Shown: piece after piece, positions 12,747-52,562 of the stretch
Layout: every line of letters starts with the position of its first letter
Position numbering within the stretch: position 1 is the stretch's first letter
Assembly (NCBI GenBank): GCA_017616855.1
Contig: JAFZXI010000033.1
Location: 1-55,085, forward strand
Direction: 5' to 3'
Origin: Clostridia bacterium
GTDB lineage: Bacteria > Bacillota > Clostridia > Oscillospirales > RGIG8002
Length of the DNA: 55,085 nt
The notes under the pieces: model-generated
The model's input: the letters and a program-made list of their open reading frames with translations, nothing else
Databases searched by the model: none
Told to the model about the DNA's origin: nothing
Position numbers and translations under genes: made by a program

Positions 12747-12761
12747 AGTGCCTCCGATTAC

Positions 12762-19313: not shown

Positions 19314-19343
19314 AAAACGGCTTCCCGATTGGGAAGCCGTTTT
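19314..19343 (-). terminator. terminator of the nucleoside ABC operon (bidirectional hairpin)
   Basis: 13-bp stem aaaacggcttccc / gggaagccgtttt with loop gatt. On the minus strand it is followed by TTTTGAATTAT. Confidence 0.75.
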
Positions 19344-19353
19344 GTTCCTTCAC

Positions 19354-25326: not shown

Positions 25327-25387
25327 TCGCCCTCACTCCTTTTTCGATTCCGGAAACGGCGAATGCGCGCTCTTGAAAAGCGCTTTA

Positions 25388-25451
25388 CCAATAGTCGCAA
25401 CTGTGGCGTGCGGTAGAAACATTCGAGCCGTTACTTTCGAACCTATATTGG
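25388..25451 (-). promoter_or_regulatory. purine (guanine-type) riboswitch aptamer
   Basis: Minus strand: P1 CCAATA...TATTGG; P2 GTTCGA..TCGAAT with GG in the loop; conserved J2/3 TGTTTCTAC; P3 CGCA..TGCG with CC in the loop; J3/1 AC (C at the specificity position) immediately before P1. Upstream of xpt. Confidence 0.7.
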
Positions 25452-25479
25452 TCGGTCGGTATTGATTTTCTATGTTTAT

Positions 25480-33073: not shown

Positions 33074-36000
33074 TTACTGAAGACTCGTTTTGTCCGCCAG
33101 CTTCGCGGCGACGCGGAGTATCTTCAGCGCGTCCGCGACGGTGATTTCGCCGTCACCGTCGACGTCGCCGACGGCGACCGCTTCGGGCGTTTCCTCGGCG
33201 AGCTTCGCCGCGATGCGGAGGGCGCGGAGCGCGTCCGCGACGGTGATCTCGCCGTCGCCGTCCATATCGCCCTTCTTGACGGGCGGGGCGGACTGCTCGA
33301 TCGTGAACGCCACGACGGTCTCCTTGTCGCCGTTGACGACGCGGAGCGTATAATCGCCGGGCTCGGAAACGAACGCGCCGCTGCCGATTTCTTCGCCGTT
33401 CAGCGTCGCTTCGCCGACGTCCCAGGTCAGCGTGACGCCTTCGTTATAGACGCCGCCGTTCTCGACGCCGGAAACGACCGGCGTATCGTACTCTTCCTTT
33501 ATCGTGAAGCTTATCTCGACGTCCGTTCTGCCGTCGCTGAAGAAGAAGAAATGTTCGCCCGGCGCGGTTATCGGAGTCCACTCCTCATAGGGTTCGCCGT
33601 CGAGCGTTGCTGACACGACGATCGTCGAATCCCAGTTTATCGCGCAGCCGTCCGGATGCTCGGTGAGGACTACCACTTCGCCGTCCTCCACGCCGTAGAC
33701 AGCGGGCTCTTCATACGGATCGAGGTCGCGGAAGGTGATGTTGTTCGCGACCGCGTAATCGTAAGCGGCGGACGGCCAGACACCCCAGATCTCCAAATCC
33801 TCGGGAGCGTTATAGAAAATATAATCGCCGAAGTTTTCGGTCGGGCCGCTTATGGTCACCCTCCGGAGCGACGTGCACTCGGAGAAGGCGCCGTAGCCGA
33901 TCGTTTCGAGCGGCCACGGGAGGTATGCGTCGGTCAGAGAGCCGCACTGATAGAAGGCGTAATCGCCGATTTCATGCTCCTGGCCGCCGAACTCGACTTC
34001 TTTGAGCGACGCGCAGCCGCGGAAGGCGCCGTAGCCGACCGTTTCGAGCGTTCTCGGCAGGATGACCTTGCCTATCTGCATGTAGTTTTCGGGGTCCTCG
34101 CCGACCGAGCGGTCGCGGAAGGCGTATTTGCCTATCGAGAGGACTTCCACGCCGTATATCTGCTCGGGGACCTCGACGAGGTAGGTATCTTCGTCATATT
34201 TCTCGAAAAGCGGCTCATCGTTTTCGTTTTTGAAGTTGTAGCCGGTGATCTCGATGCCGCCTTCGGGCAGGTAGGAATACTTGAAGCGTCCGTCTTCGGA
34301 TTCGTACTCCTCGTTGACGTCGATATCGAAGAAGAACAGCAGCGCCGTCAGCTCGGCGTCGTTGCCGAGGGGCGAGCCGCAGTAACCGAGGAACTCGTCC
34401 TCGATATCCACGCGGTAGATGCTGCTTCTGTCCATGCCGCACTGCGCCCAGTAGAGCGTGTTGTTACTGAGGTCGAACGCCATCGACTGCAGGTAGTACG
34501 CTTCGCCGCCGATGTCGAAAAGTTTGGTGACGTAGGCGCCGTTTTCGTCCGCGCCGGTGAGCATCCAGAGCGCGGCGTTATCGCCGCCGCTGATCGCGTA
34601 GTAGAGTCCGTCGGCGTTGCACGCGATCGTCATCAGGAGCGGCGAAACTTCGGTGTTTTCGGCGTCAAAGATCGGAATGACCTGACCCACCGTGCCGTCT
34701 TTGTTAACGACGGCAACGTAGCGCGCGTTAGCGTCGTCGGCGACCAGGACAACCATATCGCGTCCCCAATAGCTGTAAGTCATATCGAGCACGCAGTAAT
34801 CCGCGATGACGGGCTCGGCGCTCCAGACCATGTTGGAGTAGCGGAGCGCGCCCTCGGGGAGCTCCTCGTCCATATCAACGGTGAAGAAGTATCCGTCCTC
34901 GGAGTAGCCGTAGACCGTGCCGGCGAGGTAGACCGCCGCGGCGACGGGCTTTTCGGGCACGAAGTAACGCTTGGGCTCCGCGTAACCGTTGTTGTCGAAG
35001 CCGACCCAGCCGGTCTCGCCCGCGGCGTTATCGGAAAGGAACGCATCCACCCAGAAGGCCTCGTGAGAGGGCTGCCATACGCGGAAGCTGACGGTTACGA
35101 CGCTGAATCCGTCGGTGACGGTCAGAACGTAATCGCCGGGCTCGGTTATCTTCGAGCCCTCCTCGTAGGGCTCGCCGTTCAGCGTCGCGGTCGCGGAGTC
35201 TCCGCTCCATACCGCGCTGACGCCCTCGGGGTAATCGTCGAGGGAGTATTCGGCGCCGTCCTCGACGCCGACGATCTCGGGCGCAGCCGGCGGTTCGCCG
35301 TAGCATATATCGTCAAAGCCCTTTCCAGCGGTGTTGCCGGTAATCATTTCTTCGCTGAGTTCGTGTTCAACGCCGGTGGCGATGTAGGCGCCGCCGCCGT
35401 AGATGCCGGCGGTGTTGCCGCTGACGGAGCCGCCGAGAAGCGTGACTTCGCCTTCCTCGGCGTAGATGCCGCCGCCGAAACGCGAGGTGGCGTTCGACGC
35501 GATCGTGCCGCCGCTCATGACGAAGGCGCCCTTCTTCACGTAGACGCCGGCGCCGGAAACGGTACTGCTGTTTCCGGTTATGCTCGCTTTATCGAGGTAG
35601 CACGTTCCGCCGTCAACGAGCACGGCGGGCGCGGCGGCGGAGGAATTGCCCACGGTCAGCAAAGTTCCGGACGCGGCGGTATCGCCGAGGCGGAGGATTC
35701 CGCCGCCGGAAACGCGAATGAGTACGCCTTTGTAACCGGAAGCGCGGGTGATTTCGGCTCCTTCGCCGAGCGCAACGATGTTGACTTCTTTATCGAAAAC
35801 GCGCAGTTCCTCGGACGCTGCCGCCTTGCCGCTTACGTAAAGCTTGACGGTGCCGCCGGGGGGCACGTTCTTGTATATGAGCTGATACGCCGCTTTCAGC
35901 GTGCGGAGCGCCGCGGAAGCGGTGTTGCCTTTGTTCGTGTCTTTGCCGGTGGCGGCGTTGACGTAGTATTCTATGTCGGCGGCGAAGGGGGTAACCGTCA

Positions 36001-37141
36001 GCGCGCAGACGGAGGTGAAGCCGCCTTCTTCCGTCGTCACGGTGATGTTCGCGGTGCCGGCGGAAATGCCGGTGACGGTCCCGTCCTCGGAAACGACGGC
36101 GACGGTCTCGTTATCGCTTTCCCAGCTGACCGCCTTGTTGGTGGCGTTGGTCGGTCTCGCGGCGACCGCGAGCTTCAGCGACTTGCCGGTCGCGATGGTC
36201 GTGTTTTTCACTATCATGACGCCGGTCATCGCAACGTATCCGCCTACGGCAACGCCGGAAAGGAAGCCGCGGTCGGAACCGAAATTATTGAGGGTGTCCT
36301 TGCGGTAGACCCAGCGGAAGACGTATTCGCCGTCCTCCTGCGCGGTATAGAACCCGGCGGTACCGGGATCGACTTCGCCGCTGATGGACGCGTATTCCTC
36401 GCCGTTGACCTCAAAGACGAGGAAGTCGTGGTCCTTCTCGCTGCTGACGCCCCAGTTGAAGCGGAGCGTTTCGCCCGCGGCGAGCGCTTTGCGGAGGGTT
36501 ATCGCGGATTCGGAAGCGCTCTTGCCCGCGTTGCCGCTCACGGCGGCGCCGCTGCCGTTATTCGTCCACGGCTCGGCGGCGTCGTTTTCAAAGTTCAGTC
36601 CCGCGGCTTCGGCGTCGAGGAGCGAATCAAGGTTGTTCGCGTCCGGCGAAACGGACACGACGTGCACTTCGTCGAGGTATCCCTTGTCGTCATAAACGCC
36701 GTACGCCTCGTCCTTGACGTAGGTCCAGGCGAGCGTGTGCTCGCCCGCGGGCACGGCAAACGTGCGGGTTTCGGGCCCGAAGGAACCGCTGATACGCGCG
36801 ATCTCTTCGCCGTCTATGCTGAAAGCGAGATAGTCCCACTTCTGCTGGCAGGACGCCCTCCAGGTGAAGCAGATGCCTTCGCCCTCGGCAAAGGTCAGCG
36901 TCGTGCTGACGGTCGAAGACGACGAATCGACGCCCGCATTTCCGGAAGACGCGCCGTATTTTCCGATGGAAATCGAGTCATATGCCCACGGATGCTCCGC
37001 GTCGTTTTCAAAGACGATCGTGCCGCCGGTCACGTTGATATAGCGGTCGATGGCGTCGTCTGCGGACGCAATAAGCCCGACTCCCGCAAACAGGGACAGG
37101 CACATCGCGAAAGCAAGGACTACAGAAATCAGCTTCTTCAT
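33074..37141 (-). CDS. giant secreted multidomain dockerin protein (2x jelly-roll-like, Big_2-like, beta-helix repeats, propeller-like, BspA-type LRR, dockerin)
   Basis: Signal peptide MKKLISVVLAFAMCLSLFAGVGLIASA. Ig-like segment KAVSWESDNETVAVVSEDGTVTGISAGTANITV. GGGIYAEEGEVTLLGGSVSGNTAGIYGGGAYI beta-helix repeats. LRR segments GYGAFRGCASLKEV and GYGAFSECTSLRRV. C-terminal GDMDGDGEITVADALRALRIAAKL and GDVDGDGEITVADALKILRVAAKL. Confidence 0.85.
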   Translation of the reverse strand: MKKLISVVLAFAMCLSLFAGVGLIASADDAIDRYINVTGGTIVFENDAEHPWAYDSISIGKYGASSGNAGVDSSSSTVSTTLTFAEGEGICFTWRASCQQKWDYLAFSIDGEEIARISGSFGPETRTFAVPAGEHTLAWTYVKDEAYGVYDDKGYLDEVHVVSVSPDANNLDSLLDAEAAGLNFENDAAEPWTNNGSGAAVSGNAGKSASESAITLRKALAAGETLRFNWGVSSEKDHDFLVFEVNGEEYASISGEVDPGTAGFYTAQEDGEYVFRWVYRKDTLNNFGSDRGFLSGVAVGGYVAMTGVMIVKNTTIATGKSLKLAVAARPTNATNKAVSWESDNETVAVVSEDGTVTGISAGTANITVTTEEGGFTSVCALTVTPFAADIEYYVNAATGKDTNKGNTASAALRTLKAAYQLIYKNVPPGGTVKLYVSGKAAASEELRVFDKEVNIVALGEGAEITRASGYKGVLIRVSGGGILRLGDTAASGTLLTVGNSSAAAPAVLVDGGTCYLDKASITGNSSTVSGAGVYVKKGAFVMSGGTIASNATSRFGGGIYAEEGEVTLLGGSVSGNTAGIYGGGAYIATGVEHELSEEMITGNTAGKGFDDICYGEPPAAPEIVGVEDGAEYSLDDYPEGVSAVWSGDSATATLNGEPYEEGSKITEPGDYVLTVTDGFSVVTVSFRVWQPSHEAFWVDAFLSDNAAGETGWVGFDNNGYAEPKRYFVPEKPVAAAVYLAGTVYGYSEDGYFFTVDMDEELPEGALRYSNMVWSAEPVIADYCVLDMTYSYWGRDMVVLVADDANARYVAVVNKDGTVGQVIPIFDAENTEVSPLLMTIACNADGLYYAISGGDNAALWMLTGADENGAYVTKLFDIGGEAYYLQSMAFDLSNNTLYWAQCGMDRSSIYRVDIEDEFLGYCGSPLGNDAELTALLFFFDIDVNEEYESEDGRFKYSYLPEGGIEITGYNFKNENDEPLFEKYDEDTYLVEVPEQIYGVEVLSIGKYAFRDRSVGEDPENYMQIGKVILPRTLETVGYGAFRGCASLKEVEFGGQEHEIGDYAFYQCGSLTDAYLPWPLETIGYGAFSECTSLRRVTISGPTENFGDYIFYNAPEDLEIWGVWPSAAYDYAVANNITFRDLDPYEEPAVYGVEDGEVVVLTEHPDGCAINWDSTIVVSATLDGEPYEEWTPITAPGEHFFFFSDGRTDVEISFTIKEEYDTPVVSGVENGGVYNEGVTLTWDVGEATLNGEEIGSGAFVSEPGDYTLRVVNGDKETVVAFTIEQSAPPVKKGDMDGDGEITVADALRALRIAAKLAEETPEAVAVGDVDGDGEITVADALKILRVAAKLADKTSLQ

Positions 37142-37156: not shown

Positions 37157-38473
37157 TTATTCGGCGTTTTCGCCGGAAGCGGCGTCCGCAACGAGCCGGT
37201 CAAGCTCGTCGCGCGGGCCGTATATTATCCTGCCGTTGATAAGCGCTTTATCAAGGGCGGTCAGTTCTTTTTTCACGTCCTCCGCGGTAAGCTCAAAATG
37301 CCTCGCGGAGTCCGAATACGCTTGTATTATCGGCTCGACGGCCGGGGGCTCGTCGATGGCGCCCTGCATCATCTTGACGCCGGCGGTGAAGGCGGCTAAA
37401 AGCCCGTTGAGGTCCGCGTCCGCCGCGGTATCGAAGGGATACGTGTTTATCGCGGTTACTCCGTCGGCTTCCAGCTTGCTGATGAGCATAACCGGACAGA
37501 CGACGTCCGCGCTTATGTCGAAGGCGTTGAAGGTTATGCCTGCGCGGGCGTCCTGCGCTCCGCAGCAGTACACGGCGTCGATCGCCACGTAGAGTTTCAC
37601 GCCCGCGGACTGCGCGGCGGCGTGAAGCGCCGCGACGTTTTGTCTTACCGCGCCGGCGCGGGGCAGCTCGGCGGCTTCTTCGTCCGGGAACACGACGTCG
37701 CCGTAGTCCCCGTCGTACTCCGTCGGGAAGCGGATATTATCGAACAGCACGCCCTTGACGCCGCCTTCGGCGAGTTCAGCGATTATTTCCGCCGCGTAGT
37801 CGACCGCGTCGGAATTGAAGGGGCTGCGCCAGGAATGTCCGTTTTTATCCTGCCAGATGACGTTGGTCTTTTCCGCGCGGGTAACGGTCCTCTCGTTGCC
37901 GTCCTCGTCCGTTTCGGTCTCGGTCACCTCGCGGGATTCGACGGCGCAGTGTTTCAGATCCGTCGCGGCGAGGTCGTCGACGTAGAGCGATACGCGCGCA
38001 ATCACGCCTATGCCGGCGTTCGCGAACTTCACGAGGATGCGGTCGAGATCCGGCGCGTTTTCCGGGACGGCGCCCAGCTTACGCGCGGTCTGTATGCCGG
38101 TGTTATAGGCGAAAACGCCGCTTTCCGGCTTAAGATCGAGGACCGCTTCGGTTATGCCCTTGCGCTTGAGCACCGAAATCAGCTCGTCGACGGCGTAGGA
38201 GTCGGTGAAGTCTCCGCCGCACCAGAACGCCTGCGTCAGCTCGGAGTTGATCTCGTCGCGGCGTGTGGTTATCGGCGGTATGCCTTCGCTGGCGAGCTCG
38301 CCGGTGCGCTCCTTCGTCTTGACGGCGACGGAGAAGATAAGGTGCGTTAGCAGCATGCCGACGAAAAGCCAAAGCGCAGTCCAGCCCGCGATGCGCAGTC
38401 CGCGCTTCACGCGGCGGGTGTCCCTGACCTTTTTCGATCCGCCTTTGTAGTTGTAGGTGTTACGGTATGCCAT
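37157..38473 (-). CDS. membrane-anchored putative glycoside hydrolase-like protein (DUF4015-like)
   Basis: Start trimmed to MAYRNTYNYKGG (AAGGGAG SD). One TM segment. The TIM-barrel-like region (VLDLKPESG...VLFDNIRFP) resembles DUF4015 proteins from memory. Confidence 0.55.
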   Translation of the reverse strand: MAYRNTYNYKGGSKKVRDTRRVKRGLRIAGWTALWLFVGMLLTHLIFSVAVKTKERTGELASEGIPPITTRRDEINSELTQAFWCGGDFTDSYAVDELISVLKRKGITEAVLDLKPESGVFAYNTGIQTARKLGAVPENAPDLDRILVKFANAGIGVIARVSLYVDDLAATDLKHCAVESREVTETETDEDGNERTVTRAEKTNVIWQDKNGHSWRSPFNSDAVDYAAEIIAELAEGGVKGVLFDNIRFPTEYDGDYGDVVFPDEEAAELPRAGAVRQNVAALHAAAQSAGVKLYVAIDAVYCCGAQDARAGITFNAFDISADVVCPVMLISKLEADGVTAINTYPFDTAADADLNGLLAAFTAGVKMMQGAIDEPPAVEPIIQAYSDSARHFELTAEDVKKELTALDKALINGRIIYGPRDELDRLVADAASGENAE

Positions 38474-38486
38474 ATTGCTCCCTTGG

Positions 38487-38769
38487 GCTCGGCTTGCGCC
38501 GAGCATGATTTGAGATCCCGGCTCGGCTTGCGCCGAGCATGATTTGCAAGCGCGGGGCGCTTGCATGATTTGAACGCTCCGCGTTCATGATTTGGCTTCG
38601 CCGTGATTTGTCGCGCAATGCGCGACATGATCGTTCAAATCGCCGCAGGCAATTTGTTCCTTCATGCACCGAAGGTGCAAATCATGCGCCGCAGGCGCAA
38701 ATCATGGCGGCGCAGCCGTCAATTCATGCGGCGAAGCCGCAATTCACGCAAACGCGCAACGCGCGTTTG
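38487..38769. repeat. hairpin/linker array 3 (largest; strand flip at 38636-38656)
   Basis: About 16 hairpins. The left arm uses (C)ATGATTTG linkers and the right arm uses CAAATCATG/CAATTCATG linkers. Fills the whole rnfB-to-next-gene spacer. Confidence 0.9.
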
Positions 38770-38770
38770 C

Positions 38771-39550
38771 TTACGCTCTCATAAGTACCTTTTTCGGGCA
38801 CTTTTCGACGCACTTGCCGCAGCCGGTGCACTTGGACCGGTCTATAACCGCGAGGTTGTCGATAACGTGTATCGCGTCGTGCTCGCAGGCCTTTTCGCAG
38901 ATGCGGCAGCCGATGCAGCCGCGGTCGCAGAGCTCGCGGACGCGCTTGCCGGCATCGTGCGAGGAGCAGCCGACGAAGACGCTGTCCTTCGGCTGTATCT
39001 TTATCAGGCGCTTGGGGCACGCTCTGGCGCAGGCGCCGCAGGCGGTGCACTTTTCGTCGTTGACGACGGCGACGCCGTTTACGACCTCTATCGCGTCGAA
39101 CTTGCAGGACTGCACGCAGGTGCCCAGGCCGATGCAGGCGTAGGGGCAGAGCTTATCGCCGCCGAGCTTCGCGACGGAGAGGCAGTCGAGCGCGCCCTTG
39201 AACTCCTGGCGCTGCTTCGCGGAGGTGCCGTGGCAGGCGACGCAGGAGGCGTGCGGCTTGTATTCGCCGCCGCTGACGCCCATTATTTCGTGGATCTTAT
39301 CGTGCGCTTCCTCGTTGCAGACCTTGCAGCCGTCGCAGGAAGCGTCGCCTTTGACTACCGCTTCCGCGAAGGCGCCGCAGCCGGAGAAACCGCAGCCGCC
39401 GCAGTTCGCGCCGGGCAGGTGCCCGAGAATGCGGTCGATGCGCTCGTCCTTCTGGACCTTCCAAAACTTCGCGGCGATGCCGAGCATCAGCCCGAAAAAC
39501 GCGCCTATCGCGCCGACGACGGCGAAAGGAATAAGCAAACTCTTTATCAT
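38771..39550 (-). CDS. rnfB: Rnf complex subunit B (ferredoxin-like, polyferredoxin)
   Basis: N-terminal TM segment, CGGCGFSGC cluster motif, several CxxCxxCxxxCP motifs. Confidence 0.9.
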   Translation of the reverse strand: MIKSLLIPFAVVGAIGAFFGLMLGIAAKFWKVQKDERIDRILGHLPGANCGGCGFSGCGAFAEAVVKGDASCDGCKVCNEEAHDKIHEIMGVSGGEYKPHASCVACHGTSAKQRQEFKGALDCLSVAKLGGDKLCPYACIGLGTCVQSCKFDAIEVVNGVAVVNDEKCTACGACARACPKRLIKIQPKDSVFVGCSSHDAGKRVRELCDRGCIGCRICEKACEHDAIHVIDNLAVIDRSKCTGCGKCVEKCPKKVLMRA

Positions 39551-39563: not shown

Positions 39564-40142
39564 TTACAGCGAAAGCCCGCTGAAGCCCATGAAGGCGAGC
39601 GAGACCAGCGCCGCCGCGATAAGCGTAGACGGCAGGCCCTTGAACGCCTTGGGCACGTTGCTCATCTCGATACGCTCGCGTATCGTCGAGAAGATGACGA
39701 GCACGAGCATGAAGCCGAGCGCCACCGAGAAGCCGAAAACGACGCTCTCGATGAAGTTATACTCTCTCTGCACGGCGAGCAGGGCTGAGCCGAGCACCGC
39801 GCAGTTCGTCGTTATCAGCGGCAGGTAGATGCCGAGCGCTTCGTAAAGCGCCGGAATGAACTTCGCGAGCGCGAGCTCGACGAGCTGCACCATCGCCGCG
39901 ATGACGAGAATGAAGGCGATTGTTTTCAGATACTCCAGGTTCAGCGGCTTGAGCAGGTAGGTGTTGACCGCGTAGGTCACCGCCGAAGACATCGTTATCG
40001 TGAAGATGACCGCGCAGCCCATACCGAAGGCGGTCTTCGTGTTCTTGGAAACGCCGAGGAACGGGCACATGCCCATGAAGCGCACCAGAACGTAGTTTTC
40101 TATAAGTACGGCGCCGAGAATGATGGGAATAAGTTTAGTCAT
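39564..40142 (-). CDS. rnfA: Rnf complex subunit A
   Basis: Start trimmed to MTKLIPIILGAVLIENYVL. Conserved FMGMCPFLGVS. 8-nt overlap with the rnfE stop. Confidence 0.9.
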   Translation of the reverse strand: MTKLIPIILGAVLIENYVLVRFMGMCPFLGVSKNTKTAFGMGCAVIFTITMSSAVTYAVNTYLLKPLNLEYLKTIAFILVIAAMVQLVELALAKFIPALYEALGIYLPLITTNCAVLGSALLAVQREYNFIESVVFGFSVALGFMLVLVIFSTIRERIEMSNVPKAFKGLPSTLIAAALVSLAFMGFSGLSL

Positions 40143-41511
40143 TTTCGCCCGCCTCCTTTTCAGCGTCACGACGTTTGTCGATATCGACTATCGCCTCCGA
40201 CATGAAGGACGGGGGCTCTATCGGTTCCTCTTCCGTTTGCGGCGCGTCCTCCGCCTGCGGCTCGGACTTGCGCCTGCGCGAGAAGAAGGACTTGCGCTCC
40301 TTCTTTCCGCGGGCGGCTTCCTTCTCCTCGAGGTAGGCGCGTCTGCGCGCGGCTCTTTCCTCGGCGGAGGGCTCTTCGGCGGCGAAGGCGCCGGTCACGT
40401 CTTCGGCTGCGGGAGCTTCCTCAACGGCGGAGAAAACGAGCTGTTCGGCGGCGAGTTTTTCCGGCGCGGCTTCGGGAGCTGGTTTGGGTGCAGGTTCGGG
40501 CGCGGACTCGGGTTCGTCATTCCGAGGAGGCAACGCCGACGGGGAATCCCCCGCCTCTTCCGCCGCTTCCGCCGTTTCCGGCTCTTCCGCCGCTTCCGCG
40601 GCGGGGAGGGGATCCTTCGGCTCGGCGGCTTTCGCCGTCTCGCTCAGGATAACGGGTTCGGGCGCGGGCGCTTCGACCGCAGGAACTTTTTCCTCGACCG
40701 GCGCTTCGGGCGCGGGGGCCTCCGGCTCCGCGGCGGGAGTCAGCTCCTTCGCCGTTTCGGCCTGCAGGATCGATTCCTCTATAGTCGGCTTGAGGGGCGA
40801 AGGTTCGGGCTTCGGCTCCTCTTTCTTTTCTTCTTTCTTTTCCGCTTTCTTCGCGGGTTTCTCCTCAGCGGGAGCGCCCTCGCCGTCGCTGCCGGCGGCA
40901 AGACGCAGCGCGCGCTCTTTGCGGCGGTTGGCTACCCAGGCGCAGAACGCCATGACGAAGCCGAGCACCAGCAGACCGCCGGGCGCGAGGGTGAATATCA
41001 TTATCGGCGGGATCGTCTTGAAGTCATAACCGAGCAGGGCGCCCGTTCCGAGCACCTCGCGGATCGCCGAAACGATACATATCGCGACCGTGAAGCCGAT
41101 GCCGCTCGCTATGCCGTCGACCACCGACGGGAGCGGCTTGTTGCGGCTCGCGAACGCTTCCGCTCTCGCGAGGATTATGCAGTTGACGACTATCAGCGGG
41201 ATATACACGCCCAAGCTTTCGGAAAGCGAGGGCAGGTACGCCTTCATCACCATTTCGACCATGGTGACGAAGCCAGCGATTATTACTATGAACGAAGCTA
41301 TCCTTATGCGCTTGTCGATGACCTTGCGCAGCAGGGAGATGAAAAGGTTCGAGAATATCAGCACCACCGTGACCGCGACGCCCATTCCCAGACCGTTCAT
41401 CAAACGGGTGGAAACCGCGAGCGTCGGGCACATGCCGAGCACCTGCACGAGCACGGGGTTCTGCGTTATGATGCCGTCCTTAAGGATCTTGCCGTAGCTG
41501 TTTTTCTTCAT
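40135..41511 (-). CDS. rnfE: Rnf complex subunit E with a ~260-aa low-complexity C-terminal extension
   Basis: Residues 1-195 form a typical RnfE core (QNPVLVQVLGMCPTLAVS). Residues ~197-458 are a P/A/E/K-rich tail in a continuous ORF ending in overlap with the rnfA start. Confidence 0.85.
   Translation of the reverse strand: MKKNSYGKILKDGIITQNPVLVQVLGMCPTLAVSTRLMNGLGMGVAVTVVLIFSNLFISLLRKVIDKRIRIASFIVIIAGFVTMVEMVMKAYLPSLSESLGVYIPLIVVNCIILARAEAFASRNKPLPSVVDGIASGIGFTVAICIVSAIREVLGTGALLGYDFKTIPPIMIFTLAPGGLLVLGFVMAFCAWVANRRKERALRLAAGSDGEGAPAEEKPAKKAEKKEEKKEEPKPEPSPLKPTIEESILQAETAKELTPAAEPEAPAPEAPVEEKVPAVEAPAPEPVILSETAKAAEPKDPLPAAEAAEEPETAEAAEEAGDSPSALPPRNDEPESAPEPAPKPAPEAAPEKLAAEQLVFSAVEEAPAAEDVTGAFAAEEPSAEERAARRRAYLEEKEAARGKKERKSFFSRRRKSEPQAEDAPQTEEEPIEPPSFMSEAIVDIDKRRDAEKEAGEND
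40607..40652. repeat. GGGGATCCTTCG-[hairpin]-CGCTCAGGATAA element, copy C (inside the rnfE tail)
   Basis: gaggggatccttcggctcggcggctttcgccgtctcgctcaggataa. Translated as VILSETAKAAEPKDP. Confidence 0.7.
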
Positions 41512-45689: not shown

Positions 45690-48467
45690 ATGAAAAGACT
45701 CATCTGCGCAATTCTTTCACTTTGCATAATAGCCGCGGCGGTTCCCGCCTTCTTCGCCGGCGCGAAGAACATCGACCCCGGCACCGACGTCTCGGAGCAG
45801 CCGCTGTTCCGTATCGGCATAATGAGCGACCACCAGATGAACAACACGACCGGCGAAAACGCCGAGGCGCTCATCGCCGCGCTCAACGACTTCCACAACC
45901 GCGGAGTCGACGCCATCATCGAGGCGGGCGACATCGCCGACAGCAACCCGGAAACGATTTATACTTTCTATAAGCAGAAGTACAGCGAGATCATCGGCGA
46001 CGACGTCCCGCTGATAAGCGTCCCCGGCAACCACGACGTCTGGAGCGACAACTCGCTTGATATCTACCGCAGCTTCTTCGGCGAGACGAACAAGCACGTC
46101 GTCGTCGGCGGCTACCACTTCGTCGTGATTTCCGCCAACGGCAATCTCGGCACCGCCACCAACGGCAACTACGGCGTCGCCGAAAAGAACTTCGCGCGCA
46201 CCGAGCTCGCGGCCGCCGCCGCGGACACCCCCGCGGGACAGCCGATATTCGTCATCACCCACCAGCACATTTCCAACACCGTCTACGGAAGCGGCCCGAA
46301 CGCCAACTGGGCGAACGACTTCCTCTGGGGCATCATAGACAACTATCCCAACGCCGTCCACTTCTCCGGACACTCCCACTTCGTGCTTGAGGACGAGCGC
46401 TCGATATGGCAGGGCGATTTCACCGCGATCGGCACCAGCTCGATGGCGTATACCGAGCTTGAGTACGGCAAAGCCAACGGCTCCGTGCCTCCGGAGGCCT
46501 CCCTCGCGAAGCAGTATCTCTATCTGACGATCTATTCCGACCGCATCGAGATCGAGCGCATCAAGGCCGCGACGGGCAAAAAGATAAAGGATAACTGGGT
46601 GCTCGACCTGCCGCTTCAGAAATCCACCTTCAAATACACCGACGCGCGCGCGAACGACCGCATCGCCCCCTGGTTCGAGGAAGGCGCTTCCGCCGAAGCG
46701 GAAATGATAGGCAACGACATCCGCGTAACCTTCGACGCCGCGAAGCATAACGACTTCGTCCACTCCTACGGGCTGAAGCTCTATAAGAACGGCTCCTCCT
46801 CGCCCATCAAAGACATTCTGCTCTTCTCCGACTTTTACAAGGGTCTGGAGAATATGGCGAAAACCGTAAGCTGGAACTTCGACGGCGTCGCGGAGGAATA
46901 CGCTCTATACCGCCTCGAAATAACGCCTATCGAGTCATTCGGCAAGAAAGGAACTCCGCTCGTCTACGAATTCGCGAGCGTCAAGGCGCTGAGCGTCCAG
47001 CCGATGACGCGCGGCAAGCTCTACACCGTCGACTTCGCGACGGGAGAAGCGCGCAACGCCGTCAGCAACCTCGAAGTCAAACGCACCGGCGGCAGCGTCG
47101 AAAAGATCGGCGGCAAGTACGCCTACGTCCCCTCCGACGGCTCCCGTCTGACCGTGACGATGACCAACTCCTACTACACGCTTACGCTGAAGAAGCTGAC
47201 GCTTGAAGCGGCGTTCGTCACCAACGGCTTCGGCGCCGATCAGATCATCGCGTCCTGCTACTCCAACGGCGGCGTCAAGCTCTGGATAGACGCCGAAGGC
47301 AAGCTCCGCGCGACCGCGGTCAATTCGAGTAAGGCAGACGTCGAGGCCGTCAGCGAAGGCGCCGTTCCGCGCGGCGAGGTCTGCACCGCCGCCGTCACCT
47401 ACGACAACAGCGCGCTGAAGCTCTGGCTCAACGGCGAGCAGGTCGGTTCCGCCGCGATGTCCAACAAGATAAGCTACAACACCTCCGCCAAATACGGCAT
47501 CGGCTCCGCCGCGAACGGCGACAGCCCGCTCAACGGCGCGGTCTTTACGGCAAGCTTGCACTCCTCCGTGTTCACCGCGGACGAAATCAAAGCGATGCAC
47601 GACGCCCTCGCCAACGGCGATGACGTCAAGGTGATGCTGCCCGTCCTCGAGCAGCTCCGCCGCTCCGAGCTCCTCGCCGCGGCAAATCCGGGCAACGCCG
47701 TCATACTCAAGATACTCGATTACTATAACACCGAACTGAACGCGCTCGTCGATTCCGCCTACGTCACGCCCGAAATCATCTCCAAGGCGATCGCCTACCG
47801 CGACCTCGACGCCGACGTAACGAACACGAACGCCTCCAACCTCCCCTCCTACACGCAGCCGGCGATAGGCGGCGTTGCCCACGGCGACAGATACGACGTA
47901 TCCGCCGGCGAAGCACCCGCCCCGACCTTCACGAACGCCGAAACCGTCCTGCTCGACGGCGAGCCCTATACCGAGGGCTCCCCGATAGGCGAAGGCAAAC
48001 ACACCCTGCTCGCGTATAACGGCTGGCGCATGGACGGCGTGCAGTTCGAGGTCTACGACAGCACCTACTTCGCGCCGGTCGTCTACGGCGTCGAGGACGG
48101 AAAGACCTACGACGTTACGAAAGAGGAGGCCCCCGCGATAACCTGGGAGCCCGCCGAACTGACGGCGCAACTCGATAATCAGCCCTACGCCGCCGGAACG
48201 CCGGTGACCGCGGACGGCTGGCACGTATTCATGCTCTCCGACGGCAAGACCACGCTGGTCTACGCCTTCAAGATCGAGCACTCCGTCAAGGGCGACCTCG
48301 ACGGCGACGGTGAAGTCACCGTTTCCGACGCGCTCCGCGCTCTGCGCATGGCGGCGCAGCTTATCGACTCCGACGAAGCCGCCGACGTTGACGGCGACGG
48401 CGAGGTTACCGTCGCGGACGCGCTGGCTATGCTGAGAGTCGCCGTCGGACTGGTCGAAACGCTGTAA
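45690..48467 (+). CDS. secreted metallophosphoesterase - LamG-like - dockerin protein (paralog of 16473-19208)
   Basis: Start at MKRLICAILSLCIIAAAVPAFFAGA (GAAAGGA SD). Motifs GDIAD, PGNHDVW and FSGHSHF. LWLNGEQVGS LamG-like region. C-terminal GDLDGDGEVTVSDALRALRMAAQL and DVDGDGEVTVADALAMLRVAVGL. Confidence 0.85.
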   Translation: MKRLICAILSLCIIAAAVPAFFAGAKNIDPGTDVSEQPLFRIGIMSDHQMNNTTGENAEALIAALNDFHNRGVDAIIEAGDIADSNPETIYTFYKQKYSEIIGDDVPLISVPGNHDVWSDNSLDIYRSFFGETNKHVVVGGYHFVVISANGNLGTATNGNYGVAEKNFARTELAAAAADTPAGQPIFVITHQHISNTVYGSGPNANWANDFLWGIIDNYPNAVHFSGHSHFVLEDERSIWQGDFTAIGTSSMAYTELEYGKANGSVPPEASLAKQYLYLTIYSDRIEIERIKAATGKKIKDNWVLDLPLQKSTFKYTDARANDRIAPWFEEGASAEAEMIGNDIRVTFDAAKHNDFVHSYGLKLYKNGSSSPIKDILLFSDFYKGLENMAKTVSWNFDGVAEEYALYRLEITPIESFGKKGTPLVYEFASVKALSVQPMTRGKLYTVDFATGEARNAVSNLEVKRTGGSVEKIGGKYAYVPSDGSRLTVTMTNSYYTLTLKKLTLEAAFVTNGFGADQIIASCYSNGGVKLWIDAEGKLRATAVNSSKADVEAVSEGAVPRGEVCTAAVTYDNSALKLWLNGEQVGSAAMSNKISYNTSAKYGIGSAANGDSPLNGAVFTASLHSSVFTADEIKAMHDALANGDDVKVMLPVLEQLRRSELLAAANPGNAVILKILDYYNTELNALVDSAYVTPEIISKAIAYRDLDADVTNTNASNLPSYTQPAIGGVAHGDRYDVSAGEAPAPTFTNAETVLLDGEPYTEGSPIGEGKHTLLAYNGWRMDGVQFEVYDSTYFAPVVYGVEDGKTYDVTKEEAPAITWEPAELTAQLDNQPYAAGTPVTADGWHVFMLSDGKTTLVYAFKIEHSVKGDLDGDGEVTVSDALRALRMAAQLIDSDEAADVDGDGEVTVADALAMLRVAVGLVETL

Positions 48468-48479
48468 GAAAATGAATTG

Positions 48480-48684
48480 CTCGCCTTACGGCTCGCATGA
48501 TTTGGCTTCGCCGTGATTTGATTGCTTCGCAATCATAATTTGCCGCCGCAGGCGGCATTAAGGAACAAATTGCCGCAGGCAATTTGAACAATTATGTCGC
48601 GCGGGGCGCGACAAATCATGCGCCGCAGGCGCAAATCATGACGTCAAAGACGTCAAATCATGCAAGCGCGGCTTGCAAATCATC
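48480..48684. repeat. hairpin/linker array 4 (centre hairpin 48566-48586)
   Basis: Left arm with CATGATTTG/GTGATTTG/CATAATTTG linkers. Centre caaattgcc-gca-ggcaatttg + AACAATTATG. Right arm tcgcgc-ggg-gcgcga, cgcc-gca-ggcg, acgtc-aaa-gacgt, caagc-gcg-gcttg, each followed by CAAATCAT(G/C). Confidence 0.9.
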
Positions 48685-48726
48685 GGCATACATCCTCACT
48701 CTGCAACGAAAGGAAAACACAACCTT

Positions 48727-50112
48727 ATGCTCAACGACATCATAACCCCGTTCCGCGCCGGTTTCGCTTCCGACGCGCACACCGAGCTGCGCCTGCACCG
48801 CAACACGAGGCGCGGAGTCGCACTGCTTTCCGGCAGCCTCGTAAGCAACGAGCGCACCGAACATTCCGGCGTTTCCGCCCGCGTCTACCGCGGCGGCGTA
48901 TACGGTCTCGCCGCAGACAGCGGCGCCGATCCCGAAAGCATCACCGCCGTCCTCAAAGCCGCGGATGAAAACGCGCGCTTCATGAACTCCCGCGCCGGAC
49001 GCGGCAAGCCCGCGCTCCCCGCGCTTGAAGGCGGCAGCATCGACTCCGCGAAGCCCTACGACGACGTCCCGCAGAGCGTGATGATTGAGTTCGCCAAGCA
49101 GCTCGACGACTATATCGTCAAGAACTGCCCGAAGCTGACCAGCCGCTACGTTACGGTCCGCTGCGACTCGATGGAGAAGCTGCTTCGCGTCGATAACGGC
49201 TTCGACAGCCACTCGCTGATGCCGCGCTCCTTCATCTACCTCGACTTCTCCGCCGAGACCGATGCCGGCGTCACCGTCGAGCTATACGACGTGACCGGCG
49301 GTTACGGCGGCTTCGCCGACAACTTCACCGATCCGGCGCTGCTCTACCCCTTCGTCGACCGGCTCTACAAGCGCATAATGGAGAAGCGCGAGGGCGTCTA
49401 CGCCGACGCCGGAGAGCGCACCTGCATACTCGGCGCCGAGGTCGCGGGCATCCTTGCCCACGAAGCGGTCGGACACACGACCGAAGCCGACCTCGTGCTC
49501 GGCGGCTCCGTCGCCGGCCCGAACCTGCACAAGCGCGTCGCTTCCGACAAGATAACCCTCGTCGACTACGCGCACACGACCCCGCAGGGTGTTGCTCCGC
49601 TGCCGATCTACGTCGACGACGAAGGCACCCCCGCCTCCGACGAGCTTATCATCGACAAGGGCATCCTCGTCGGCTACATGAACAGCCGCGAGACCGCGCA
49701 GCACTTCGGCATGACGCCGCACGGCAACGCGCGCGCCTACTCCTTCATGGACGAGCCGCTGATTCGCATGCGCAACACCGCGATCCTGCCCGGCACGGAC
49801 AAGCTCGAGGATATGATTGCCTCCGTCGACGACGGCTACTACTTCATGACGACGAACAACGGCCAGGCGGATACGACCGGCGAATTCATGTTCGGCATCC
49901 CCTTCGGCTACGAAATCAAAAACGGCAAGCTCGGGCGCGCGATACTCGATACTACGATCACCGGCGTCGCCTTCGAGATGCTGAAGACCGCGGATATGGT
50001 CTCCGACCGTATGGACTGGACCTGCTCCGGTATGTGCGGCAAAAAGCAGCCGATGCCGGTCGGAATGGGCGGCCCGGATATCCGCTGCCGCATAATGGTT
50101 GGAGGTAGATAA
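48727..50112 (+). CDS. tldD: TldD-family metalloprotease
   Basis: Start trimmed to MLNDIITPF (AAAGGAAAA SD). HEAVGHTTEAD zinc motif. Confidence 0.85.
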   Translation: MLNDIITPFRAGFASDAHTELRLHRNTRRGVALLSGSLVSNERTEHSGVSARVYRGGVYGLAADSGADPESITAVLKAADENARFMNSRAGRGKPALPALEGGSIDSAKPYDDVPQSVMIEFAKQLDDYIVKNCPKLTSRYVTVRCDSMEKLLRVDNGFDSHSLMPRSFIYLDFSAETDAGVTVELYDVTGGYGGFADNFTDPALLYPFVDRLYKRIMEKREGVYADAGERTCILGAEVAGILAHEAVGHTTEADLVLGGSVAGPNLHKRVASDKITLVDYAHTTPQGVAPLPIYVDDEGTPASDELIIDKGILVGYMNSRETAQHFGMTPHGNARAYSFMDEPLIRMRNTAILPGTDKLEDMIASVDDGYYFMTTNNGQADTTGEFMFGIPFGYEIKNGKLGRAILDTTITGVAFEMLKTADMVSDRMDWTCSGMCGKKQPMPVGMGGPDIRCRIMVGGR

Positions 50113-50113
50113 A

Positions 50114-51418
50114 ATGAATAAAGACAAACTGAACAACGCTGCCGAATACGCGCTTCAGGCGCTGAAAAACGCCGGCGCGGAAAAAGCGAAGGCCACCGTC
50201 TTCGGCGGCAGCACCACTGAATTCAATATTGACGGCGGCGAGTTCTCGCTGATGCGCACAATCTTCAACGAGGGTCTCGGCGTCGACGTCATAACCGGCG
50301 GACGCAAGGGGGCCGCCTCCACGAACGCGATCGACCGCGAAAGCATCGACGGCGTAGTCGCCGACGCGATGACCGCTGCCGAAAGCGGCGAGCCCGATCC
50401 CGCATGGGACATCGCCCCTTATGCTGAGCCGCGCGACTTCCCCGGCGGCGTGCTCGAGTTCGACAAGGACGCGCTTTTCGACGCCGTCCGCAAGCTTAAG
50501 GACGACATCGCGAAGGGCTGGCCGAACATCCTCATCGAACAGCTCATCGCCTCCTACCACCGCGATTACAGCGTGAAAATGAACTCCAACGGCGTCTGCT
50601 ACACCGGCGAATCCGGCCGCTACGAGGTCGGGCTGATGTTCTCCGCTCACGAGGGAGATAAGGCGTCCTCCTTCTTCGGCAGCGGCGTCCGCTTCACCGA
50701 TCCGACGCAGCCGCTTATCGACATGGGCTCGATACGTGCCGACCTCGACGCCGTCGCTAAGCAGGTCGACCCGCGCACCTTCGAGGGCAAGTTCGACGGC
50801 ACGCTCGTGCTGACGCCCGCGATGTTCGGTGAGTTTATCTACCTCGCGATGGGCAACTTCACCTCCGACGGCGTGATAATCGAGGGCACCTCGCCCTGGA
50901 AGGACAAGCTCGGCAAGCAGGTAGCGGACCCGCGGCTGAACGTCCGCGTCGCTCCGCTCGATCCCGCGATCGTCTGCGCCGAACGCGTCACCGGCGACCT
51001 TTTCGTCAGCGAGGACTACGACTTCATCAAGGACGGCGTACTGCAATGCTTCCCGCTCTCGCTCTACGCCTCCAACAAGACCGGCTTTGACCGCGCGAAA
51101 AACTCCTCCGGCGCGCTGATCGTCCCCGCGGGCGACCGGTCGCTCGACGAAATCATCGCCGGTATCGACAAGGGACTGCTGCTCGGACGCTTCTCCGGCG
51201 GACAGCCCGGAACGAACGGAGACTTCTCCGGCGTCGCCAAAAACAGCTTCCTTATCGAAAACGGCAAGGTCACCGACGCCGTCAGCGAGATAATGATAAA
51301 CGGCAACCTCGCCGACGTCCTGATGAACCTGCGCGGCATTTCCCGCGAACGCGTCGCCGACGGCGGCACCGTGCTGCCCTACGCCGCGTTTGACGGAGTA
51401 ACCGTGACGGGAAAATAA
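50114..51418 (+). CDS. pmbA: PmbA/TldE-family protein (TldD partner)
   Basis: Start at MNKDKLNNAAEYAL, 8 nt after GGAGG. Homologous fold to TldD but without the HExxxH motif. Confidence 0.8.
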   Translation: MNKDKLNNAAEYALQALKNAGAEKAKATVFGGSTTEFNIDGGEFSLMRTIFNEGLGVDVITGGRKGAASTNAIDRESIDGVVADAMTAAESGEPDPAWDIAPYAEPRDFPGGVLEFDKDALFDAVRKLKDDIAKGWPNILIEQLIASYHRDYSVKMNSNGVCYTGESGRYEVGLMFSAHEGDKASSFFGSGVRFTDPTQPLIDMGSIRADLDAVAKQVDPRTFEGKFDGTLVLTPAMFGEFIYLAMGNFTSDGVIIEGTSPWKDKLGKQVADPRLNVRVAPLDPAIVCAERVTGDLFVSEDYDFIKDGVLQCFPLSLYASNKTGFDRAKNSSGALIVPAGDRSLDEIIAGIDKGLLLGRFSGGQPGTNGDFSGVAKNSFLIENGKVTDAVSEIMINGNLADVLMNLRGISRERVADGGTVLPYAAFDGVTVTGK

Positions 51419-51420
51419 CG

Positions 51421-51666
51421 GCGCGCCGCAGGCGCGCATGATTTGCTCGCCCGACGGCTCGCGTGATTTGGCTTCGCCATGATTTGCGCCTGCGGCGCAT
51501 GATTTGCACCTTCGGTGCATTATTGAGCAAATTGCCGCAGGCAATTTGAACGATCATGTCGCGCGAGGCGCGACAAATCATGATTGCGGAGCAATCAAAT
51601 CATGAACGCGAAGCGTTCAAATCATGCAAACGGCAGACCGTTTGCAAATCATGCACGCGAAGCGTG
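51421..51666. repeat. hairpin/linker array 5 (centre hairpin 51528-51548)
   Basis: Five hairpins with (C)ATGATTTG/GTGATTTG linkers. Centre caaattgcc-gca-ggcaatttg + AACGATCATG. Then five hairpins (tcgcgc-gag-gcgcga, attgc-gga-gcaat, aacgc-gaa-gcgtt, caaacgg-caga-ccgtttg, cacgc-gaa-gcgtg) joined by CAAATCATG linkers. Confidence 0.9.
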
Positions 51667-51682
51667 CTAAAGGAGACGACCC

Positions 51683-52381
51683 ATGAAAAACCGCAAACTT
51701 ATCTTCGCCGTTATCGCGCTGCTGCTCGCCGCGGCGCTGCTGCTCGGCGCCTCCGCCTGCGACCGCATCGTCGGGCCGCGCGGAAACAATAACGCCAACG
51801 CCAACAAAAACAACGGCTCCGAAAGCACCGATGACCCGCGCTACGTCAAGCAGGCGGGCCAGGGAATGAGCGAATATGACATCTATAACCGTTTCGAAAC
51901 CTACTGCACTCCCATGTGCTTCGCCATCGAGTATTACGGCGGCAAGGGGCTCGACTACGTCGCCGGGCAGGAGATCGAGCTCGACGGACACACCTGGGCG
52001 CCGAGCGCGCTCGCGATGTTCGACACGCTCGAAAGCATCGAAAGCTACGTCGATATGTTCTTCACCGGCGGCTTCCTGAAGGATCTGCGCACGACAGCGG
52101 GCATGGAGGGCGACGAATACGCTCCCCGCTACCGCGACGTCGACGGCAAGCTCTACGTCCGCACCGACGAGCCGAACGAATCGCTGATGTTCAGCATCAA
52201 CCTCGACACCTTCACAATCGTCTCCAACACCGAGGAGGAGATAAAGTTCACCGTCGACGCGACGCTTAACGGCGGCCTTTACGAGCTGCGTATCATCATG
52301 TCCCCCGTCGGCGAAAGCGGCTGGAAGATAAGCTACTGGTATCCGGAACCGAAGGATTCGAGCTCGGAAAGCTCGAATTAA
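51683..52381 (+). CDS. lipoprotein of unknown function
   Basis: Lipobox LLLGASAC, AAGGAG SD. No recognisable domain. Confidence 0.75.
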   Translation: MKNRKLIFAVIALLLAAALLLGASACDRIVGPRGNNNANANKNNGSESTDDPRYVKQAGQGMSEYDIYNRFETYCTPMCFAIEYYGGKGLDYVAGQEIELDGHTWAPSALAMFDTLESIESYVDMFFTGGFLKDLRTTAGMEGDEYAPRYRDVDGKLYVRTDEPNESLMFSINLDTFTIVSNTEEEIKFTVDATLNGGLYELRIIMSPVGESGWKISYWYPEPKDSSSESSN

Positions 52382-52543
52382 TGAATACTGAAGACTGAAG
52401 ATTTAATAATGAATAATTGCGGTTCAAATCGGCTTCGCCGATTTGTTCCTTCATGCAGTGCAGCTGCAAATCATGCGCCGCAGGGCGCAATTCATGACGG
52501 CGCAAGCCGTCAAATCACGCCGCGCAAGGCGCGGCAAATCATG
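52379..52543. repeat. AT-rich module + hairpin/linker array 6
   Basis: taatgaatactgaagactgaagatttaataatgaataat (overlaps the stop codon). Centre caaatcggc-ttcg-ccgatttg (52425-52445) + GTTCCTTCATG. Then four hairpins with CAAATCATG/CAATTCATG/CAAATCACG linkers. Confidence 0.9.
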
Positions 52544-52562
52544 CGAACGAAAGTGAGCTAAT

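Follow-up and report, generated by a model that had tools for sequence, protein, structure and literature searches.

The 297-base spacer between rnfB and the next gene on a 55,085-nucleotide stretch of DNA from a Clostridia bacterium (NCBI GenBank assembly GCA_017616855.1, contig JAFZXI010000033.1; the whole stretch is called the window) is occupied throughout by an array of short hairpins joined by a conserved linker. The array is very probably an orphan copy of a dispersed repeat of the Gut-1 superfamily (Rfam RF01706), linked to genes of the PF05635 four-helix-bundle family. An earlier sequence-only reading of the window had taken it for a single local oddity and could place it in no named family. 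Neither statement can be kept: the array is one copy of a dispersed element that is linked to a protein family, and it is a sub-threshold relative of Gut-1, with which it shares its grammar and a common centre hairpin.

A two-armed hairpin array fills the rnfB-DUF4015 spacer

The spacer extends from the rnfB stop codon (38771-38773, - strand) to the ATG of the next gene (38473, - strand), and all of it (38474-38770) is array. The general design had been read correctly: hairpins alternate with a linker, the strand is flipped at a central hairpin, and no part of the spacer is left over. The linker reads CATGATTTG to the left of the central hairpin and CAAATCATG, its reverse complement, to the right; the sense reading CAAATCATG is denoted '>' below and the opposite sense '<'. 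Twelve short palindromes were counted where about 16 stem-loops had been proposed, six in the left arm, one at the centre and five in the right arm. Five of the six left-arm palindromes have CATGATTTG or CGTGATTTG after them, and the second palindrome (H2) is a tandem duplicate of the first (H1; repeat units 38487-38512 and 38521-38546). In the centre hairpin (38636-38656), 8 of 9 pairs are formed. Each stem is lengthened by TG...CA from the neighbouring linkers (the last G and the first C), and AATCA alone stays unpaired between hairpins. Read in the sense of the mRNA, the region runs from the rnfB stop through the '<' arm, the centre and the '>' arm to the Shine-Dalgarno sequence (SD) and the DUF4015 gene, an order that is also found upstream of the four-helix-bundle genes described below.

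The linker, with at most one mismatch, is present 39 times in the window, compared with 6.4 +/- 2.4 times (maximum 12) in dinucleotide shuffles, a 6-fold enrichment. The window has 26 segments bounded by two same-strand linkers, and in 23 of them the palindrome is perfect up to a loop of 3-4 nt; together they contain 104 stem pairs, compared with 12 expected from shuffled segments. Folding was far better than in dinucleotide-shuffled controls (z -5.96 as RNA, -6.49 as DNA). The minimum free energy structure of the RNA has some long-range pairs, and the centroid is made up of local hairpins only. Mirror-image compensatory variants of left- versus right-arm linkers, of the kind expected from inter-arm pairing, followed no consistent pattern when the window copies were inspected.

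The array is non-coding, as had been proposed; unit lengths are not divisible by three, and the open reading frames (ORFs) that overlap it are junk. CRISPR was also rightly set aside: the repeats are 9 nt long versus 23-50 bp, the 'spacers' are palindromes of 7-18 nt, and no cas-like neighbour recurs among the matches listed. A scan of 38474-38770 revealed neither a sigma-70-like promoter nor an intrinsic terminator (GC hairpin followed by a U tract), in agreement with the earlier account, and the array was rejected as a terminator. No rRNA is found in the window, and the array is flanked by rnfB and the DUF4015 gene and not by an rRNA helix. The array had been described as the intercistronic spacer of an rpe-rnf transcript. 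It is probably transcribed as the spacer from rnfB to the next gene, but that gene belongs to the DUF4015 family and does not encode Rpe.

Six related copies are present in the window

The prediction of further copies was borne out. Linker matches cluster at six places in the window, all of them intergenic; four copies are two-armed and two consist of the centre and the '>' arm only (Table 1). Copies occur at a density of about one per 9 kb, beside unrelated genes. An alignment of the six shows no variation in the centre hairpin or in the four '>'-arm linkers. The centre hairpin, AAATYGSC...GSCRATTT, is common to the 38474-38770 array, the other five window copies and a metagenome locus (L123) described below.

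The palindromes between the linkers fall into position-specific types which recur at matching positions in the other five copies: tcgcgc-NNN-gcgcga beside the centre, then attgc-GAA-gcaat or cgcc-GCA-ggcg, then aacgc, acggc or acgtc. Stem differences among the copies are paired changes that preserve the palindrome. Thus, the hairpins are not arbitrary, and the copies descend from a common unit of ~200-300 bp. The 38474-38770 array is the longest copy because its outermost unit has been tandemly duplicated.

The element is dispersed in gut and rumen Clostridia

One genome per species was scanned for three linkers spaced 7-18 nt apart, and at least 112 stretches were obtained. Among the matches listed, inter-linker palindromes are present in about 37 assemblies, all of them gut or rumen metagenome-assembled genomes (MAGs) of Clostridia, labeled Acutalibacteraceae, Christensenellaceae, Oscillospiraceae, Faecousia, Ruminococcus, Lachnospiraceae, Scatosoma or 'Clostridia bacterium'. 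Pattern matches outside the Clostridia (e.g. L053) were rejected, as their segments are not palindromic and they are plain tandem repeats. A scan of viral_contigs gave 6 matches only, in giant-virus bins, and no sign of a phage vector.

Stems follow genome composition, being AT-rich at 36% G+C and GC-rich at 63%, while the linker CAAATCATG is unchanged throughout; it is the most conserved part of the element, as the sequence-only reading had stated. The companion statement, that the hairpin sequence varies, is true of the loops. The stems are position-specific and conserved within a lineage, for example TTGC-loop-GCAA with 13 different loops. Exactly four linkers make up 121 of 256 arms, and the unit spacing ranges between 14 and 27 bp. 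Because no stem follows the 3'-most linker, its final base is T, C or A instead of G. Arrays often lie at MAG contig ends (among the matches listed), and three independent Logan contigs (within L204-L207) end at the same base inside the 38474-38770 array; such breaks indicate that the arrays behave as repeats in assemblies. A literature search for the linker strings returned incidental primers only.

The array is a sub-threshold relative of Gut-1

With Rfam gathering thresholds, no match was obtained on any array of the window. With reporting by E-value, the only meaningful match was Gut-1, over the full model length, at 23.5 bits (38654-38729, - strand) and 28.0 bits (48608-48685, - strand), compared with a gathering score of 50. 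The database check, in which a match had been named as the outcome that would count against novelty, thus yielded a partial match below the gathering score. In the covariance-model alignment the array and Gut-1 correspond unit by unit, GUGAAAU in Gut-1 being equivalent to CAUGAUUUG here. The array shares with Gut-1 the presence of at least three tandem variable hairpins parted by a conserved short linker. It differs in the linker, which in Gut-1 is GTGAAAT or GTGATAT (GUGAAAU or GUGAUAU in RNA) and in the window CATGATTTG or CAAATCATG, in its score below the 50-bit threshold, and in having no four-helix-bundle gene beside it.

Weinberg et al. 2010 (PMC2864571) presented Gut-1 as a candidate sRNA with three hairpins, seen in human-gut metagenomes only, not cis-regulatory and without a function, and rated it as certainly RNA. 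Two arms, dispersal and a protein neighbour are not mentioned in that description (PMC2864571), and in the searchable literature Gut-1 is mentioned only in the discovery paper. The seed alignment of that study includes flanking sequence, in which parts missing from the model can be seen. There the GUGAUAU-linked hairpins give way to a hairpin UUGCCUGCGGCA and UUUGA, beyond which the hairpins have the reverse-complement linker AUAUCAC. This succession of a left arm, a centre hairpin (TTGCCTGCGGCA...TTTGA) and a right arm in inverted orientation is that of the window arrays. Thus, Gut-1 is the left arm of such a two-armed architecture, written in a different linker dialect.

Locus L123 has a bona fide Gut-1 match (63.8 bits) together with a four-helix-bundle gene, and its centre hairpins, AAATTGCCGCAGGCAATTT (followed by GTTCCTT) and AAATCGGCTCCGCCGATTT, are identical to those of the window. 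The combination of the two in one locus indicates that the window arrays and Gut-1 are homologous and not merely analogous. Further linker dialects are ATATCGC/GCGATAT, ATATCGA, ATTTCAT, ACTTCAC and ACATCAT, and two dialects were found in one MAG (L009). Judged from sequence, the window array is a sub-threshold cousin within the same superfamily as Rfam Gut-1, in a new linker variant. Two tandem c-di-GMP-I riboswitch aptamers were also seen in L123 (1109-1300), just downstream of the Gut-1/four-helix-bundle element.

Arrays adjoin PF05635 four-helix-bundle genes

All ORFs of the 112 array-selected loci listed (8-kb slices) were clustered. One small family recurs beside arrays in varied genomic contexts (7 loci and at least 5 independent contexts, among the matches listed); the remaining clusters that recur are either paralogues of an ABC-transporter-like family or syntenic orthologues. 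The recurring family corresponds to TIGR02436 'four helix bundle protein' and PF05635 '23S rRNA-intervening sequence protein' (E about 1e-30). The product is roughly 120 aa long, and the closest solved structure is PDB 2RLD, with five chains. All 7 genes from the array-selected loci are embedded in arrays. Three loci, L011, L060 and L086, are arranged as '>>>> SD-gene <<<<', and their stop codon falls within a CATGATTTG linker. Diverging arms surround a central gene in L026 and L080; in L080 the gene is bracketed by two copies of the centre hairpin and adjoins a gene-less copy with a single hairpin.

To guard against selection bias, a second set of loci was collected by protein homology alone (80 loci, forming 59 clusters at 90% identity). 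A 7-mer repeated at least 5 times within 350 nt on either side of the gene was found in 47 of 63 gene flanks and in 4 of 143 control windows from the same loci. The repeated 7-mers are the linker dialects. In the dominant layout 3-4 '<' linkers are followed by 3-4 '>' linkers and then the gene ('<<< >>>> gene'), and in about 33 of 52 protein clusters the gene is immediately preceded by the array. Gut-1 matches of 50-89 bits were detected 150-230 nt upstream of the gene start, on the strand of the gene, in 14 of 20 loci scanned. The distance from the last linker to the SD of these genes is 2-15 nt, which leaves no room for a promoter, so that the '>' arm is placed in their 5' untranslated region; in one exception (L126) a plausible promoter follows the last linker. 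A crude test of neighbour orientation upstream of the four-helix-bundle genes (10 shared the strand, 3 did not and 15 were unclear) proved too weak to be informative.

PF05635 proteins have a homologue in Avd, the accessory protein of diversity-generating retroelements (DGRs; PMC10053308). The family is known from rRNA intervening sequences (IVSs), and in a study of the candidate phyla radiation (CPR) the 23S_rRNA_IVP ORFs are functionally uncharacterised and scattered among rRNA insertions, ORF-bearing and ORF-less insertions existing side by side. A literature search on PF05635 with repeats or hairpins found nothing relevant, and neither a reverse transcriptase nor template and variable (TR/VR) repeats were found near arrays in any fetched locus. 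Alayyoubi et al. are said to have described Avd, in 2013, as a basic pentameric bundle that binds DGR RNA and reverse transcriptase.

Four-helix-bundle/Gut-1 units are very often found immediately downstream of a tRNA gene or tRNA cluster and on its strand (L147 2244-2734, L178 31-382, L125, L160, L158, L126, L186 and L171).

Copies vary in presence between close relatives

Related MAGs with flanking proteins 85-99% identical were compared. In at least 8 pairs an orthologous spacer is filled in one genome and empty in the other (e.g. 534-547 vs 52 bp, 504 vs 30, 161 vs 43 and 290 vs 194). L006 and L052 differ by a clean insertion of ~196 bp with no target duplication. The element at 1364-1921 of L001 is flanked by an 11-bp direct repeat which is single-copy in the empty site of L072. 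The four-helix-bundle-bearing element occupies another neighbouring spacer in L086 than in L011 and L060. In the spacer after a large conserved gene (~1250 aa) the element is found in opposite orientations in different species. Dialects are also exchanged: the spacers which in L049 hold copies of the CAAATCATG dialect (1737-2083 and 3233-3543) hold GCGATAT/ATATCGC and ATATCGA elements in the orthologous positions of L097 and L079.

Three copies are present within 4 kb in L026. Their arms are 94-98% identical, and their centres hold a four-helix-bundle gene, an unrelated insert of ~170 nt and ~40 nt, respectively. The near-identical arms show that gene-bearing and gene-less copies are the same element. 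In L070 (2250-3100) a nearly identical 110-nt direct repeat of '<<<< centre' lies on both sides of the gene. This arrangement looks like a Campbell-type product, and homologous recombination between arrays may be a route of copying. An expansion to 10 units was found in L044.

In L026 (5340-5520) the ~170-nt insert, which contains GTCATTCTGAGTGAAACGAAGAATC and two copies of ACGCTCGCAATGACG, takes the place of the four-helix-bundle gene, a sign that the centre may serve as a cargo slot. A second repeated module of ~80 nt (ttaatacctcaataaaRtcgatRcac...caccgaggaaag) is seen in Acutalibacteraceae MAGs, where it lies between convergent arms: in L001 (~1490-1570), L002, L010, L038 and L049 (two in tandem). 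The module has no Rfam match; it may represent an independent small RNA or a further cargo.

Loops and mismatches carry a strand signal

Among 222 unique perfect units, 98 have a G..A loop (such as GCA, GAA, GTA, GTAA, GCAA or GACA) on the strand reading CAAATCATG, against 3 with a T..C loop. Single mismatches in otherwise perfect stems, read on the same strand, are G.T in 18 cases and A.C in 8. The bias in loops and mismatches indicates that the functional form is single-stranded and strand-specific. In a two-armed copy the G..A-loop strand runs 5'->3' outward on each side of the centre. GCGAAGC, the minimal unit, is found repeatedly. The DNA heptamer d(GCGAAGC) is reportedly an exceptionally stable mini-hairpin (work attributed to Hirao et al.), and this keeps a DNA reading alive.

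Feature coordinates and neighbouring genes

Table 1. Hairpin arrays of the window and the genes on either side of the rnfB-DUF4015 array
Feature	Position	Strand	Description
Left arm	38487-38625	-	'>' arm in mRNA (- strand) sense, leading into the DUF4015 SD; six GC-rich palindromes
Left-arm palindromes	38487-38504 (H1); 38521-38538 (H2); 38547-38563; 38573-38585; 38595-38601; 38611-38625		38595-38601 reads GCGAAGC on the - strand
Left-arm linkers	38504, 38538, 38564, 38586; 38602		CATGATTTG at the first four; CGTGATTTG at 38602
Centre	38626-38666	none	Junction CATGATCGTT; hairpin CAAATCGCC-GCA-GGCAATTTG (38636-38656); junction TTCCTTCATG
Right arm	38667-38769	+	'>' sense on + strand; five palindromes; ends 1 nt short of the rnfB stop codon
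Right-arm palindromes	38667-38677; 38687-38697; 38707-38719; 38729-38739; 38749-38769		
Right-arm linkers	38678, 38698; 38720; 38740		CAAATCATG at the first two; CAATTCATG at 38720; CAATTCACG at 38740
rnfB	38771-39550	-	Upstream flank; PF04060 FeS and 4Fe-4S domains; last gene of the rnfCDGEAB cluster
DUF4015 gene	37157-38473	-	Downstream flank; 438 aa, PF13200; ATG 38473, SD GGGAG 6 nt upstream, right after the last hairpin
Full two-armed copy	12760-12937	none	Spacer between two - strand genes
Half copy	19323-19462	+	'>' arm only, four linkers; between convergent genes; ends in a centre-type hairpin
Full copy	48476-48684	none	Between two + strand genes
Full copy	51419-51672	none	Between two + strand genes; two-copy megablast alignment ~190 bp (window 51475-51663), 85% identical
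Half copy	52424-52550	+	Centre hairpin and '>' arm; directly upstream of the gene starting at 52563

The DUF4015 gene is adjoined by a gene for a 1355-aa surface protein with Big_2, LRR_5 and dockerin-like repeats (33074-37141, - strand), which hints at a cellulosome-type Clostridia host; the G+C content is about 60%, and the loci fetched for comparison include no relative of the window organism. Beyond rnfB, an RnfE-like ORF (40135-41511, - strand) has a low-complexity tail of ~230 aa rich in P, E, A and K; gene calling splits it into two genes (371 and 87 aa) in the strain-level contig L200. Elsewhere in the window a purine riboswitch aptamer was matched (25372-25470, - strand; 37.7 bits vs a gathering score of 37).

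Discussion

The account that we favour, and that we place only slightly on the probable side, combines these observations in a gene-less derivative of the kind known as a miniature inverted-repeat transposable element (MITE) or a paired repetitive extragenic palindrome (REPIN), co-transcribed with its host operon, its linkers bound by a four-helix-bundle oligomer, and tolerated as a spacer. The unit consists of two arms of 4-5 palindromes each, inverted about a conserved central hairpin; complete members carry a ~120-aa PF05635/TIGR02436 (Avd-like) gene or lie directly upstream of one. The window copy would be non-autonomous, a whole unit (~200-300 bp) having been copied into the spacer. There it is most likely co-transcribed with the rnf operon. 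In single-stranded form, most likely as RNA, it is predicted to fold into a row of hairpins with the linkers exposed, and these would be putative binding sites for an oligomer made from master copies elsewhere in the genome. Hairpins would hold successive linkers at a constant spacing whatever the stem length, which fits the variable units of 14-27 nt, and the two-fold symmetry would let the element work in either insertion orientation. For the host operon the array would be a tolerated spacer which at most modulates mRNA processing or stability, with effects that are probably small.

Several findings weigh against this account. A target-site duplication was seen in only 1 of 3 clean filled/empty pairs. 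PF05635 proteins have no known catalytic activity, and the making of copies is left unexplained by them. No four-helix-bundle gene lies within the 55-kb window, so that its six arrays are orphans. In the commonest layout both arms are upstream of the gene and do not flank it, which suits a regulatory leader as well as transposon ends. The two-fold symmetry and the C-GNA-G triloops, including GCGAAGC, suit DNA hairpins at least as well as RNA. At the rnfB locus itself, five strain-level contigs spanning the spacer are identical and three truncated contigs match as far as they reach. The array is invariant in the strain-level contigs with the identical RnfB, and this locus therefore gives no information on presence or absence. 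The truncated Logan contig L207 shows two substitutions in the array, one of which (C-to-T on the mRNA strand) turns a G.T into an A.T pair and makes the palindrome perfect.

It is conceivable, though not very likely, that the array is an autoregulatory 5' leader of the four-helix-bundle genes and that orphan copies have put host genes such as the DUF4015 gene under the same RNA-binding regulator. Such a regulon would account for the position of the array directly upstream of so many of these genes, with the SD close behind the last linker, for the rating of Gut-1 as certainly RNA, and for the '>' arm abutting the SD of the downstream gene in 5 of 6 window copies. The last point carries little, as a symmetric element in a co-directional spacer trivially has one arm facing a start codon. 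Copies are too dense, beside unrelated genes and in one case between convergent genes (19323-19462), and the same spacer differs between close species by presence or absence, by inversion and by replacement of the dialect, while near-identical copies fill tandem spacers. This density, turnover and near-identity have the look of selfish spread and not of a conserved regulon.

Action at the level of DNA is unlikely. Here single-stranded hairpins or extruded cruciforms would serve replication, recombination or nucleoid organisation, or would be the substrate of a hairpin-specific DNA enzyme. The symmetry, with the G..A-loop strand directed outward from the centre on each strand, the exact GCGAAGC units and the DNA folding score agree with it. 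However, half elements and versions with convergent arms exist, the spacing of 14 to 27 bp has no helical phasing, no nuclease or recombinase gene recurs near arrays (among the matches listed), and the '>' arm is necessarily part of the four-helix-bundle mRNAs.

Very little speaks for a classical repetitive extragenic palindromic (REP) or bacterial interspersed mosaic element (BIME) mobilised by a REP-associated tyrosine transposase (RAYT; Y1 HUH transposase) or a relative of IS200/IS605. The arrays are intergenic, numerous, hairpin-based, sometimes inverted in pairs like REPINs and variable in presence between species, but they lack a conserved 5' motif of the GTAG type, the hairpin sequence is not their conserved part, and no Y1 transposase is among the recurrent neighbours in the 8-kb slices of the 112 loci listed, where PF05635 recurs instead. 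It is equally improbable that the arrays are bidirectional transcription insulators, in which the '<'-sense unit (GC hairpin and UGAUUUG) is a weak intrinsic terminator and the arms block transcription from either side. A terminator scan does flag units antisense to the '>' arms (13 vs 5.4 expected in 48300-52700), but the 38474-38770 array has no such match, the dialects GTGAAAT and GTGATAT have no U-rich tail, and copies lie inside apparent operons, where termination would be harmful. Neutral slippage, which would make the array a local tandem repeat of no family or function and could be read from the H1/H2 duplicate and the expansion in L044, can be dismissed almost entirely in view of the fixed arm length of four linkers, the position-specific stems, the compensatory upkeep of the palindromes and the conservation of the linker over the assemblies from 36 to 63% G+C.

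The favoured account, that of a tolerated, gene-less mobile derivative, may be set beside known systems. With REP, BIME and REPIN-RAYT elements the arrays share short, intergenic, high-copy palindromes, modular mosaics, sometimes inverted doublets, co-transcription with operons and a tie to one protein gene that is itself flanked by repeats. REP sequences of Enterobacteria and Pseudomonas conserve the palindrome and a 5' GTAG and are partnered by a Y1 HUH transposase, whereas in the arrays the linker is conserved, stems are lineage-specific, loops are free and the partner is a four-helix bundle. MITEs resemble the arrays in a small non-coding body (120-300 bp), inverted arms about a centre and presence/absence variation between relatives, and gene-bearing and gene-less array copies have near-identical arms; the arrays differ in that their gene-bearing relatives encode PF05635 and not a known transposase, that target-site duplication was seen once, and that the gene is beside the arms in the commonest layout.

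The 23S rRNA IVSs with PF05635 (Leptospira, Coxiella, CPR) have the same protein family, an ORF with flanking inverted repeats, and ORF-bearing as well as ORF-less versions, but the window element lies in an mRNA spacer and not in rRNA. Excision by RNase III is known for 23S rRNA IVSs; that window-type arrays are excised in the same way would be a conjecture by analogy. As to the Avd of DGRs, the homology to PF05635 and the five chains of 2RLD are points of likeness, and the absence of reverse transcriptase and TR/VR repeats near arrays in the fetched loci is a point of difference.

The two-armed layout, the dispersal, the dialects and the tie of Gut-1-type motifs to PF05635 are new: the 2010 account does not contain them, and no mention of them was found in the searchable literature. 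A broader proposal can be made, with more doubt than conviction, namely that hairpin-linker arrays and PF05635 proteins form an unrecognised protein-repeat partnership, comparable to that of REP and RAYT and built on an Avd-like oligomer instead of a transposase fold. Each subunit would read one dialect-matched linker of 7-9 nt on a single-stranded array of four hairpins, and by this complex hundreds of orphan arrays in gut Clostridia genomes would be copied, processed or maintained. If true, such a partnership would explain the occurrence of the PF05635 family in rRNA intervening sequences and downstream of tRNA genes.

On the practical side, the arrays break metagenome assemblies and generate spurious ORFs. 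Gut-1 has been in Rfam since 2010 as an orphan 'gut-only sRNA' without a function, and PF05635 is a large family, described as functionally uncharacterised in the CPR study and known only from rRNA intervening sequences and the Avd of DGRs. The window array joins these two unexplained items into one testable system. Within it the Gut-1 motif is very probably a single arm of a repeat that is symmetric, dispersed and divided into dialects, and that occupies operon spacers across many uncultured gut Clostridia.

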